Of a stretch of DNA of 64,000 bases, positions 61,167 to 64,000 are shown piece after piece. The notes under the pieces are model-generated. The model did not search any database and had not been told where the DNA came from. It saw nothing but the letters and a program-made list of their open reading frames with translations. The stretch comes from an uncultured Alphaproteobacteria bacterium (GTDB lineage: Bacteria > Pseudomonadota > Alphaproteobacteria > Sphingomonadales > Sphingomonadaceae). How positions within the stretch are numbered: the stretch's first letter is position 1; every line of letters starts with the position of its first letter. Both the position numbers and the translations under genes were made by a program. The DNA is taken from NCBI GenBank assembly GCA_963701615.1, contig OY969615.1, forward strand, positions 3,212,525 through 3,276,524, in the 5' to 3' direction.

Positions 61167-62348
61167 ATGGCCCGCTTTCTCCTCCTCTGCCTGCTGCTCA
61201 CCGGCTGCGCGACCGGCGCCGGGCGGCAGGCGGCGCCCGCTTATGCCTGGGCGACGTTCGACCGCACGGGCATCACCGCAGCCGGTTCATCGGGCCTTGC
61301 CGACCGCGCGCGCGGTCGCCGGCTGACGATCGACGACCCGGTGCGGATCGCGTCGATCACCAAGCTGGTGGTGGCGCTCGGCGTGATGCGGCTGGTGGAA
61401 GAGGGGAAGCTCGATCTCGACCGCGATGTCTCCGACGCTCTCGGCTGGAGCCTGCGCAACCCGGCCTTTCCCGACCGGCCGATCACCTTGCGGCTGCTGC
61501 TGTCGCACCGGTCGTCGCTGAAGGACGATATCGACTATGCGATCCCGCTCGGCACGACCCTGCGCGCCGCGCTCGCCGATCCGCGGGCGTTCGACCCGGC
61601 CCATCCGCCCGGCGCCTGGTTCCGCTATGCCAATCTCGGCTTCCCGGTCGTCGCCGCGGTGATGGAGCGCGCTTCGGGCGAGCGCTTCGACCGGCTGATG
61701 GAACGGCTTGTGCTGCAGCCGCTGGGGCTCGACGCCTGCTTCAACTGGACCACCTGCAGCCAGGACGATCTGGCGCGGGCGGTGGTGCTCTACGATGGCG
61801 AAGGCCGCGCCATCCGCGACGATCTCGGCGGGCGGCCGCCCGCCTGCCCGGTGCTGGCGCCGGAGGGCGTCGCCTGCGATCTCGCATCCTACGAGCTGGG
61901 CAGCAACGGCGCGCTCTTCTCGCCGCAGGGCGGATTGCGCATTTCCGCGCGCGACCTCGCGGCGGTGGGCCGGTTGCTGCTCAACGAGGGACGCCATCGG
62001 GGTGCCCGCTTCCTCAGCGCGGACAGCATCCGCGAAATCGTCACCGCGGCCTGGCGGTTTGGCGGCGGCAATGGCGAGACCGACAGCGGCTTCTACTGCG
62101 CCTACGGCCTCGCCGTGCAGAGCCTGCCGGTCGCCGCGCCGGGCTGCCGCGACGATTTGTTCGGCGACGGCCGGGCGGTGTCCGGCCATGCCGGCGACGC
62201 CTACGGCGTCCGCTCGGGCCTCTGGATCGACGCCGGGCGCGGCGTCGGCATCGCCTATTTCGCCACCGGCAATGGCGAGGATCCGCCGCGCGGCCGCTCG
62301 GCCTATCGCGCGATCGAGGAGAGGCTGGCCGGGCGGCTCGGCCGCTAG
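61167..62348 (+). CDS. serine hydrolase (beta-lactamase/PBP-like) lipoprotein
   Basis: LLTGC lipobox, ASITK (SxxK), RYAN (YxN), GHAGD. Confidence 0.88.
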   Translation: MARFLLLCLLLTGCATGAGRQAAPAYAWATFDRTGITAAGSSGLADRARGRRLTIDDPVRIASITKLVVALGVMRLVEEGKLDLDRDVSDALGWSLRNPAFPDRPITLRLLLSHRSSLKDDIDYAIPLGTTLRAALADPRAFDPAHPPGAWFRYANLGFPVVAAVMERASGERFDRLMERLVLQPLGLDACFNWTTCSQDDLARAVVLYDGEGRAIRDDLGGRPPACPVLAPEGVACDLASYELGSNGALFSPQGGLRISARDLAAVGRLLLNEGRHRGARFLSADSIREIVTAAWRFGGGNGETDSGFYCAYGLAVQSLPVAAPGCRDDLFGDGRAVSGHAGDAYGVRSGLWIDAGRGVGIAYFATGNGEDPPRGRSAYRAIEERLAGRLGR

Positions 62349-62519
62349 GGTGTATCGGCATTCAGGTTCGTCGGACGGAAAAGCCCTCTTCCCGCCGGGG
62401 AGAGGGGCTGCTGCCGGCGCCTCGAACGAATGCCGATACGGCCAGCGCCCGACGCCGCGATTGCAATCTCCGCCGCCGGGCCTATCCCGGGAGCCCGATC
62501 TCCGGGCGGAAGGATCGCC

Positions 62520-62861
62520 ATGATCAACCGTATCCTGCTGGCGGCTCTGGCCGCCGCGATCTTCCTCGGCGCGGGGGCCTATACGCTCGGCCTGCTGAAC
62601 GAGCGGAGCCTGAGGCTCGCCGAAGTGACCACGGACGTCTGCTATTCGCGCCACGGCATCGGCCTCGTCGCCGCGCCGTCGGTGCCCGAGGCGATCCGGC
62701 GCGAGTGCGCGCAGCCGATGCGGGATTATGCTTCGGCCCAGCCCTGGCGCTACGTGTTCGCCGCGGCCACCGGCGCCACCGCTGCGCTGCTCGTCGTCGG
62801 CGGCATCGTCATCCTCGTTCGCCGGCGGCGGCGGCAACCGGCCGTCCCTTTGGGGCGTTGA
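62520..62861 (+). CDS. hypothetical two-TM protein
   Basis: MINRILLAALAAA...; two hydrophobic segments with a Cys pair between them. Confidence 0.65.
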   Translation: MINRILLAALAAAIFLGAGAYTLGLLNERSLRLAEVTTDVCYSRHGIGLVAAPSVPEAIRRECAQPMRDYASAQPWRYVFAAATGATAALLVVGGIVILVRRRRRQPAVPLGR

Positions 62862-62901
62862 CGCCTTGACACAGAGGAAATCCCGACCGATCAGGAACGC
62901 A

Positions 62902-62961
62902 ATGCGCAGCGCAATCGCCTCGACCTATTATTATCGGCTCGCCCGGGCGGGACCGATCTGA
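62902..62961 (+). CDS. Tyr-rich attenuator leader peptide MRSAIASTYYYRLARAGPI
   Basis: AGGAA RBS at 62893-62897; TAT TAT TAT at 62926-62934; TGA at 62959-62961. Confidence 0.8.
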   Translation: MRSAIASTYYYRLARAGPI

Positions 62962-62995
62962 CGCGCGCTTAACCAGCCTCGAAGCTCAGAATCGC

Positions 62996-63030
62996 ACCCC
63001 GTCCGGACTTCCGGGCGGGGTTTTTCTTTT
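62996..63030 (+). terminator. intrinsic terminator (attenuator) in the phhA leader
   Basis: ACCCCGTCCGG-ACTT-CCGGGCGGGGT 11-bp stem followed by TTTTCTTTT, 12 nt before the phhA ATG. Confidence 0.88.
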
Positions 63031-63042
63031 CAGGAGAAACCC

Positions 63043-63828
63043 ATGCTGACCGAAACCATCATCGAAGCGAAGAACGCGGACTGGACGATCCCGCAGCATT
63101 GGGAGCGATTCACGCCGGCCGAGCACGCCGTCTGGGACCTGCTGTTCGCCCGCCAGCAGGAGGCGCTGAGGGGCCGCGCGGTGAGCGACTTCTTCCGCGG
63201 CCTCGACGTGCTGCGTCTGTCGAGGCCGGGCATCCCCGACCTGGACGAGCTGAACGAGCGGCTGTTCGCCCGCACCGGCTGGACGATCGTGTCGGTGCCC
63301 GGGCTGGTGCCCGACGACATCTTCTTCGATCATCTGAGCCGGCGCCGCTTCCCCGCCGGCAACTTCATCCGCTCCGCCGACTCGCTCGATTATCTGGAAG
63401 AGCCCGACATGTTCCACGACGTGTTCGGCCATGTGCCGCTGCTCGCCCAGCCGGCGGTCGCCGATTTCATGCAGGAAATGGGCGCGGCGGGGCTGGCGGC
63501 GCTCGAGGCGGGCGCGCTCCACCGGCTGGCGCGGCTCTACTGGTACAGCGTCGAGTTCGGCCTGGCGCGGGAGGAGGGCGAGACCCGCATCTACGGCGCC
63601 GGCCTGCTGTCGAGCTTCGGCGAGAGCCGCTACGCGCTCGACAGCGCCGTCCCCGGCCGGTCGCGCTTCGACCTCGCCCGCGTGCTCCGCACCCGCTATT
63701 GCTCCAGACGCCTTCCAGAAGCCTATTTCGTCATCGACAGCTTCGCCGAGCTGCTGCGGCTGATGCACGAGGCGGATTTGGCCGGGCTCTACGGGCAATT
63801 GGCGAGCACGCCGGACCTTGAGCCCTAA
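63043..63828 (+). CDS. phhA: phenylalanine 4-monooxygenase
   Basis: VPGLVPD..FF.HL..R.FP, YLEEPD.FHDVFGHVP (Fe His ligands), WYSVEFGL (Fe Glu), YGAGLLSS.GE. Confidence 0.93.
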   Translation: MLTETIIEAKNADWTIPQHWERFTPAEHAVWDLLFARQQEALRGRAVSDFFRGLDVLRLSRPGIPDLDELNERLFARTGWTIVSVPGLVPDDIFFDHLSRRRFPAGNFIRSADSLDYLEEPDMFHDVFGHVPLLAQPAVADFMQEMGAAGLAALEAGALHRLARLYWYSVEFGLAREEGETRIYGAGLLSSFGESRYALDSAVPGRSRFDLARVLRTRYCSRRLPEAYFVIDSFAELLRLMHEADLAGLYGQLASTPDLEP

Positions 63829-63833
63829 TTCCT

Positions 63834-63958
63834 CCCCGGCTTTTGCCGGGGAGGGGGACCACCCGAAGGGTGGTGGAGGGGTAAATGGCCCAGGCCTGTG
63901 CCTTCTACCCCTCCACCAGGCTTCGCATGCTCCCCTCCCCACGAAATCGTGGGGAGGA
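63834..63958. repeat. palindromic element, family 2, downstream of phhA
   Basis: TTCCTCCCCGGC..GCCGGGGAGGGGGACC...CCCCTCCCCACG..CGTGGGGAGGAA. Confidence 0.85.
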
Positions 63959-63959
63959 A

Positions 63960-64000
63960 CTAGATGTCCTCGTGGACCATGTCGATCTCGCGGACGCGGC
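63960..64000 (-). CDS. 3' end of an unidentified gene (...RVREIDMVHEDI*)
   Basis: GC3-rich codons ending in TAG; only 13 codons visible. Confidence 0.4.
   Translation of the reverse strand, partial: RVREIDMVHEDI

Follow-up and report, generated by a model that had tools for sequence, protein, structure and literature searches.

What is a mini-gene with three consecutive tyrosine codons doing directly upstream of a phenylalanine hydroxylase gene, phhA? The question arises from a locus in an uncultured alphaproteobacterium of the family Sphingomonadaceae (assembly GCA_963701615.1, contig OY969615.1), of which we analysed a stretch of 64,000 nucleotides, here called the window; coordinates are positions within it, and phhA and the elements of its leader all lie on the plus strand. 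An earlier note on this DNA had read the mini-gene as the leader of an attenuator in which a ribosome stalling at tyrosine codons allows transcription of phhA. Our comparison of related loci and our folding of ribosome-masked RNA support that reading, and we consider it likely that the element is a functional ribosome-mediated transcription attenuator governing phhA in response to the charging of tRNA-Tyr.

On its 5' side the stretch 62866-63045 is bordered by a small membrane-protein open reading frame (ORF; 62520-62861), for which no family match was found, and on its 3' side by phhA (63043-63828). Within this stretch the leader ORF (62902-62961) begins with ATG at 62902, comprises 19 codons (MRSAIASTYYYRLARAGPI) and ends with TGA at 62959-62961. 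The three consecutive TAT codons noticed earlier are present at 62926-62934, the proposed stall site, and form the single TAYTAYTAY run of the window, where 0.03 would be expected from dinucleotide shuffles. In the genome as a whole (3.48 Mb, 68.9% G+C), tyrosine makes up 1.9% of codons and the leader's run is the sole TAYTAYTAY in a short ORF with a downstream terminator. A second YYY site in a short frame (minus strand, around 2,909,640) falls in an AT-rich, promoter-like stretch ahead of another gene and was therefore rejected as a leader, and no further copy of the leader element was found in the source genome.

Between the mini-gene and phhA lies an intrinsic terminator at 62996-63030, the position proposed for it earlier, with a stem (62996-63021) closed by the loop ACTT and a T-run at 63021-63030. 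The stem has 11 pairs, nine of them G-C, and is followed by TTTTTCTTTT; its folding energy is -22.9 kcal/mol, and the terminator ends 13 nt upstream of phhA. The 9-mer CCGGGCGGG at 62943-62951 recurs unchanged, on the same strand, as 63011-63019 in the terminator 3' arm, which confirms the identity that the earlier note had reported. Taken by itself such a 9-mer is unremarkable in DNA this GC-rich, the window having 11 copies where 6.8 are expected; its significance comes from its placement and conservation. At its first position it forms the core of segment 2 (62943-62961), the 5' strand of the antiterminator, which continues with the extension CGATCTGA (62954-62961) and overlaps the final six leader codons and the stop codon. 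Segment 3 (62986-63006), which is common to the antiterminator and the terminator 5' arm, consists of the extension TCAGAATCG (62986-62994) and CCCGTCCGG (62998-63006). The minimum-energy fold of 62890-63045 is the extended antiterminator that had been suggested, pairing 62943-62951 with 62998-63006 and adding the CGAU/AUCG and CUGA/UCAG helices; at this locus the antiterminator is predicted at -28.7 kcal/mol, against -22.9 kcal/mol for the terminator.

Conservation of the tyrosine run in homologous loci had been named as a test of the attenuator. We searched 61 related genomes, found phhA in 40 of them and compared the upstream regions of the 30 loci returned. In 28 of these loci, which belong to the genus Allosphingosinicella/Sphingosinicella, phhA is preceded by a Tyr-run leader and a terminator; the exceptions are L020, one of the phhA copies of the TyrA-positive genome G001, and a locus from another family. 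The 28 leaders share a tyrosine run (YYY, YYYY or YxYYY), the tail ARAGP(I/D/E/G) ending at the stop codon, and a terminator directly before phhA. The same leader is found in 11 further named Allosphingosinicella/Sphingosinicella or closely related genomes, for example MRSVNASTYYYRLARAGPI. A covariance model built from the 28 leaders and run on 201 genomes of the family recovered full-length copies beside phhA in two more Sphingomonadaceae genera, g79 and g44, whose leaders end in SSYYYY(Y)RRRAVFD and RYYRVWWTCALAGTD, respectively. The remaining matches of the model were mostly bare terminators following unrelated genes, such as that for H+-pyrophosphatase, and were not counted as true copies.

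When the 28 leaders are aligned, each has two to four tyrosine codons in positions -14 to -9 relative to the stop codon (three or four in all except L017), and the last tyrosine codon stands eight codons ahead of the stop in 27 of them. TAT (73 codons) and TAC (24 codons) interchange at these positions, so that synonymous changes keep the tyrosine. The start codon and the reading frame are likewise kept, while the leaders range in length from 19 to 45 codons and their N-terminal sequence drifts. This pattern of conservation points to translation of the mini-gene.

The genes upstream of the 28 loci belong to at least 19 unrelated families and nine of them are divergently oriented; the leader element is missing from genus members that have no phhA. 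Because the upstream neighbours are unrelated between loci, the element, on this comparative evidence, belongs with phhA rather than with whatever gene lies upstream. A role of the hairpin as nothing more than the terminator of the upstream gene was rejected, given that these genes differ, that nine are divergent and that a conserved TTGACA intervenes. One further copy, a full-scoring leader (117 bits) at G024:C1:459757-460541, precedes a phhA with an in-frame TGA or frameshift, which may have turned into a pseudogene recently or owe its defect to an assembly error.

The alternative folds are conserved along with the codons. For each locus we folded the nascent RNA that begins just past the tyrosine codons and ends with the terminator 5' arm, as this is what has emerged when the polymerase completes segment 3. 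The segment 2:3 antiterminator formed in 28/28 loci, with energies of -21 to -35 kcal/mol compared with -19 to -26 kcal/mol for the terminators. Its inner helix varies from locus to locus and stays complementary (CGAUC/GAUCG, GGAU/AUCC, CGGA/UCCG, CGG/CCG or UUGAUU/AAUCGA). In an alignment-free test, cognate extension strands paired at -6.80 kcal/mol compared with -5.62 kcal/mol for non-cognate strands (permutation p = 0.00035). The RNAalifold consensus structure of the 28 loci is the terminator, and the 9-pair core helix is 95% paired across the 28 sequences and nearly invariant.

Folding with and without a masked ribosome had also been proposed as a check. With a mask covering -15 to +12 around the A-site codon of the nascent RNA, segment 3 was held by segment 2 in 28/28 loci when the ribosome was placed at the first tyrosine codon and in 27/28 when it was placed at the last. 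With the ribosome at the stop codon, segment 3 was free in 23 of the 28 loci and weakly paired elsewhere in the other five. These predicted states are the ones that tyrosine-dependent attenuation would call for.

Upstream of the mini-gene, 37 of 38 related loci have TTGAC at a distance of 35-38 nt from the leader start codon. In the source locus TTGACA (62866-62871), 36 nt 5' of the ATG, is a candidate -35 hexamer proposed from conservation alone, and GATCAG (62889-62894) is a candidate weak -10 hexamer; across the 38 loci A is enriched at -12 (20/38) and T at -8 (22/38). A sigma-70 consensus scan found no full promoter at the leader, and no purine-rich Shine-Dalgarno sequence ahead of the leader ORF is conserved across the 38 loci. 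The earlier description of a ribosome-binding site followed by a 19-codon leader therefore stands for the ORF and is not borne out for the binding site, as the AGGA at 62892-62895 is not kept in relatives. Normal spacing from TTGACA would place the transcription start at or beside the leader ATG, and the mini-gene is probably leaderless at the mRNA level rather than driven by a ribosome-binding site. Two overlapping TTGAC motifs are present in the source locus, 44 and 36 nt before the leader ATG (62858-62871, TTGACGCCTTGACA), and the doublet is also seen in locus L004.

From these features we infer a transcription start, a stalling event and a tyrosine-dependent readthrough that would together make up the following mechanism. 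Transcription would start about 36 nt 3' of the conserved TTGACA, probably at the leader ATG, and the mini-gene would be translated as a leaderless mRNA. With plentiful Tyr-tRNA the ribosome would reach the TGA at 62959 and cover segment 2 (62943-62961), the terminator arms would pair and the polymerase would halt at the T-run 13 nt before phhA. With scarce Tyr-tRNA the ribosome would stall at the TAT codons 62926-62934 and leave segment 2 exposed, which would capture the emerging terminator 5' arm and let transcription proceed into phhA. PhhA would then produce tyrosine from phenylalanine, and the device would amount to end-product control of a biosynthetic step.

The regulated gene is well identified. 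The 261-residue product of phhA scores 281 bits against the NCBIfam equivalog TIGR01267 (cut-off 264.75), matches the Chromobacterium phenylalanine hydroxylase (PAH) structure PDB 1LTU with an E-value of 8e-79 and Pfam Biopterin_H with 1e-43, and contains the motifs HDVFGH and VEFG. The iron ligands (His/His/Glu) can be recognised in FHDVFGHVP and SVEFGL, judged against the established PAH motifs. By these matches the product is a bona fide monomeric phenylalanine 4-monooxygenase, in agreement with the identity first given to it. No regulator gene adjoining phhA was found in the window. The Shine-Dalgarno sequence of phhA, read directly from the DNA, is AGGAG at 63032-63036. When the antiterminator forms, a further pairing is predicted within 63017-63042, where the terminator 3' arm and T-run thus set free (GGGUUUUUCUU) pair with the Shine-Dalgarno region (AGGAGAAACCC), and similar pairing appears possible in relatives; in these modelled structures it could be a by-product of a U-run beside a purine-rich Shine-Dalgarno sequence or a second layer of control.

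Would such a bacterium need to make tyrosine through PhhA? No TyrA (Pfam PF02153) was detected in the source genome or in 33 of the 37 genus genomes. It was found in all 14 control genomes and in most genomes of the order's other families. The same division holds beyond the genus, with TyrA absent from 7/7 further leader-bearing Sphingomonadaceae genomes and present in 8/8 Sphingopyxis, Sphingobium and Erythrobacter genomes that lack the leader. In the TyrA-positive G001, L020 is one of two phhA copies and has no leader; the second copy is more distant. Because no prephenate or arogenate dehydrogenase is detectable, PhhA is probably the only route to tyrosine in the source genome and in most of the genus. 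A role of this kind has precedents, as PAH is the tyrosine route in Dyella, which lacks TyrA (genetic evidence), and a contributor in Echinicola, and GapMind counts PAH as a tyrosine route (PMC7311316). The source genome also encodes PhhB, the pterin-4a-carbinolamine dehydratase of pterin recycling. Taken together with the leader, the absence of TyrA here and in most of the genus strengthens the earlier proposal that phhA is under end-product control, as far as gene content can indicate.

The supply of phenylalanine itself may be unusual. Canonical prephenate dehydratase (PF00800) was undetectable in the source genome, and on gene content many members of the genus may be phenylalanine auxotrophs or users of a diverged enzyme. 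Since TyrA and prephenate dehydratase are so often missing, many of these bacteria may import phenylalanine and turn some of it into tyrosine as needed. PF00800 is present in only 14 of 41 genus genomes and, where present, often lies within a few kb of phhA. In six genus genomes (G004, G015, G029, G030, G033 and G036) phhA, a clear TyrA and the leader are all missing.

In several relatives (L005, L006, L003, L010, L017, L013 and L014) the leader and phhA adjoin genes of aromatic biosynthesis, namely those for 3-deoxy-D-arabino-heptulosonate 7-phosphate (DAHP) synthase (aroG), chorismate mutase, shikimate dehydrogenase (aroE), dehydroquinate synthase (aroB) and prephenate dehydratase (pheA). 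These neighbours were assigned by eye from motifs, with the aroB and prephenate dehydratase assignments agreeing with tblastn and Pfam matches. Such a neighbourhood fits a biosynthetic role of phhA.

Counterparts of the element precede phhA in another phylum. At 22 of 49 Bacteroidota phhA loci a Tyr-run mini-gene is followed by a strong terminator, compared with 0/49 reverse-complement controls. The carriers include Roseivirga, Marivirga, Hymenobacter, Cytophagales, Chitinophagales and Flavobacteriales, with MNFTHNTYYYYYQVPTGIGNGSVMHIM as an example, and the loci (L094-L143) show tyrosine runs such as YYYYY and YHYHYY (e.g. L136, L126). They share with the Sphingomonadaceae element the arrangement of mini-gene and terminator before phhA, whereas their nucleotide sequences and tails are unrelated to it. 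In some of the Bacteroidota loci, part of the leader is complementary to the 5' arm of the terminator (GGAAUCGG with CCGAUUCC). A general test for an antiterminator gave a weak result, with 3 of the 22 individually significant, and we do not claim the full mechanism there. About half of these Bacteroidota genomes have TyrA; in Roseivirga locus L132 a TyrA-family gene lies about 1.2 kb upstream of phhA on the same strand. Against Rfam these counterparts gave only sub-threshold matches to Thr_leader (28-31 bits, threshold 55).

Other explanations of the conserved switch have to be set against tyrosine-dependent attenuation. The terminator and antiterminator could form a real switch that is set by an RNA-binding protein or a small ligand, with the Tyr-rich ORF incidental. 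Core helices as nearly invariant as these are what a protein or ligand site might show, and translation of the mini-gene, which has no conserved Shine-Dalgarno sequence, is deduced from its pattern of conservation. That pattern is nevertheless hard to account for without translation, since the start codon, frame, tyrosine identity (as TAT or TAC) and eight-codon gap are all kept while the peptide drifts. Moreover, Tyr-run mini-genes of unrelated sequence precede phhA in Bacteroidota and are missing from the controls, and no Rfam riboswitch or protein-binding leader family matches. We give a switch of this kind only a small chance. If, instead, the mini-gene does act through its translation, its output might be something other than intrinsic termination, either Rho-dependent polarity or pairing of the T-run with the phhA Shine-Dalgarno sequence. 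The T-run does pair with AGGAGAAACCC just 5' of the phhA ATG in the antiterminated fold, and the terminator is merely 13 nt from phhA. Yet the hairpin and T-run make a textbook intrinsic terminator kept in 28/28 loci, while pairing between the T-run and the Shine-Dalgarno sequence is expected for any U-run beside a purine-rich Shine-Dalgarno sequence and would reduce expression in the very state meant to raise it. The chance we allow for such an output is, if anything, slighter still.

The conservation of the C-terminal ARAGP(I/D/E) within the genus might also suggest that the small ORF encodes a functional micropeptide (tail ARAGPI) and that the hairpin is a leaky terminator or an mRNA-stabilising structure. 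The conserved tail is, however, encoded by nucleotides that copy the terminator 3' arm (GCCCGGGCGGGACC), and elsewhere it changes with the local terminator, to RRRAVFD in g79, AGTD in g44 and GIGNG in Marivirga. Nor is any conservation seen in the first two-thirds of the peptide. A micropeptide is the least probable of these explanations, and we regard it as very improbable.

Several observations weigh against the tyrosine-sensing attenuator itself. Equilibrium folds of the complete leader yield the terminator in nearly every mask state. We judged equilibrium folding uninformative because the decision is co-transcriptional, and the argument consequently relies on a kinetic, co-transcriptional picture. 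In that picture, ribosome-free nascent RNA gives the antiterminator in 27/28 loci, so that the trp-like 1:2 hairpin which would keep the system off by default is lacking. Stalling at the third tyrosine codon would also bring the ribosome onto the first 2-3 nt of segment 2. Column-based pair counts on a MAFFT alignment of the 28 sequences show no significant covariation, the core being nearly constant and the alignment columns failing to bring homologous positions of the inner helix together. Of the covarying stems anticipated by the earlier note, the antiterminator present in 28/28 loci with differing inner helices bears out the expectation and column-based covariation does not, and covariation support for the stems is moderate on the sequences compared. 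As regards physiology, two genus genomes, G025 and G031, carry both TyrA and the leader, the absence of TyrA depends on one Pfam model, and diverged prephenate dehydrogenases and dehydratases are known in other lineages (PMC13759103). The source genome also has homogentisate dioxygenase, so that PhhA may feed catabolism as well.

How does the tyrosine-sensing attenuator proposed here relate to known systems? The earlier note had called for a search of Rfam and the literature. None of the Rfam leader families (Trp_leader, Phe_leader, His_leader, Thr_leader, Leu_leader and others) matched in 62300-63400 up to E = 10. We found no paper describing a Tyr-specific leader peptide or RNA-level control of phhA; older comparative genomics in subscription journals lay outside the search, and a prior prediction there is possible. 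The classical enterobacterial attenuators, trpL-trpEDCBA, pheL-pheA, hisL and thrL, follow the Yanofsky model. Like the phhA leader they combine a short ORF in which codons for the regulating amino acid are clustered in a run, an intrinsic terminator just 5' of the structural gene, and a mutually exclusive antiterminator in which the last part of the leader ORF pairs with the terminator 5' arm, and their target gene supplies the sensed amino acid. The phhA leader differs in sensing tyrosine, for which we found no described attenuator, in having phhA as its target, and in being probably leaderless and without an Rfam leader match. It differs further in its lack of a 1:2 hairpin, as no segment 1:2 pairing, either as a pause or as an anti-antiterminator structure, was found in the nascent-RNA folds of the 28 loci. 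The segment 1:2 hairpin belongs to the trp/his architecture and not to every attenuator. The trp/his/phe architecture first assigned to this locus is thus retained for the terminator and antiterminator and lost for the 1:2 hairpin, leaving a three-segment device. Judged by its predicted parts, the phhA leader has the defining features of leader-peptide attenuators except the 1:2 hairpin.

Leader-peptide attenuators are covered in PMC11802643, and the nearest published case is the aroR leader ahead of aroF in Corynebacterium glutamicum, which in the account given there of Neshat et al. (2014) contains Phe-Tyr-Phe and responds to phenylalanine, reportedly not to tyrosine. Both are leader-peptide attenuators for aromatic amino acids with a Tyr codon. 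The target of aroR, however, is DAHP synthase, whereas the phhA leader has a pure tyrosine run (YYY to YYYY) and phhA as its target. The usual view of phhA is that of a catabolic gene controlled by an activator. In Pseudomonas and other proteobacteria it is under the control of the sigma-54 activator PhhR or of Lrp/AsnC-type proteins (PMC1173090). These systems regulate the same gene and provide substrate induction for phenylalanine and tyrosine catabolism through DNA-binding proteins, whereas the phhA leader would act on tyrosine shortage through RNA and the ribosome. The Tyr-specific T-box leaders of Firmicutes, found before tyrS and related genes (PMC1262725), resemble the phhA leader in exerting terminator/antiterminator control at the RNA level by reading tRNA-Tyr charging. 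A T-box, though, binds uncharged tRNA directly and has no translated leader, and T-box models gave no match at the phhA leader. Structure-only 'putative attenuators' have also been listed before tyrA operons, without leader-peptide analysis.

The spacer on the 3' side of phhA (63829-63962) is packed with GC-rich hairpins, such as CCTCCCCGGCTTTTGCCGGGGAGGG and CCACCCGAAGGGTGGTGG. Motifs from these hairpins recur genome-wide (CCCCTCCACCA 42 times and GGGGAGGGG 156 times), and by this repetition they look like a repeat family of the repetitive extragenic palindromic (REP) or miniature inverted-repeat transposable element (MITE) type.

With rather less assurance than for the single element, we favour the view that Tyr-codon leaders constitute an uncatalogued class of attenuator dedicated to phhA in several phyla, of which the Sphingomonadaceae version is a compact, probably leaderless, three-segment form. 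It would mark lineages that have lost TyrA, and often canonical prephenate dehydratase, and make tyrosine only from phenylalanine. No leader-peptide attenuator known so far senses tyrosine, for which the T-box is the known control at the RNA level, and the phhA leader would fill this gap with a clear and testable example. The compact and apparently leaderless three-segment layout would also be a handy model for the minimal needs of an attenuator. If this view is correct, PhhA, in textbooks a catabolic and activator-induced enzyme, would be recast in lineages without TyrA as a biosynthetic enzyme repressed by its product, a reading that would aid metabolic reconstruction and the prediction of auxotrophies. 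The leader element could then serve, together with the absence of TyrA, as a simple genomic marker of a PhhA that is biosynthetic rather than catabolic.

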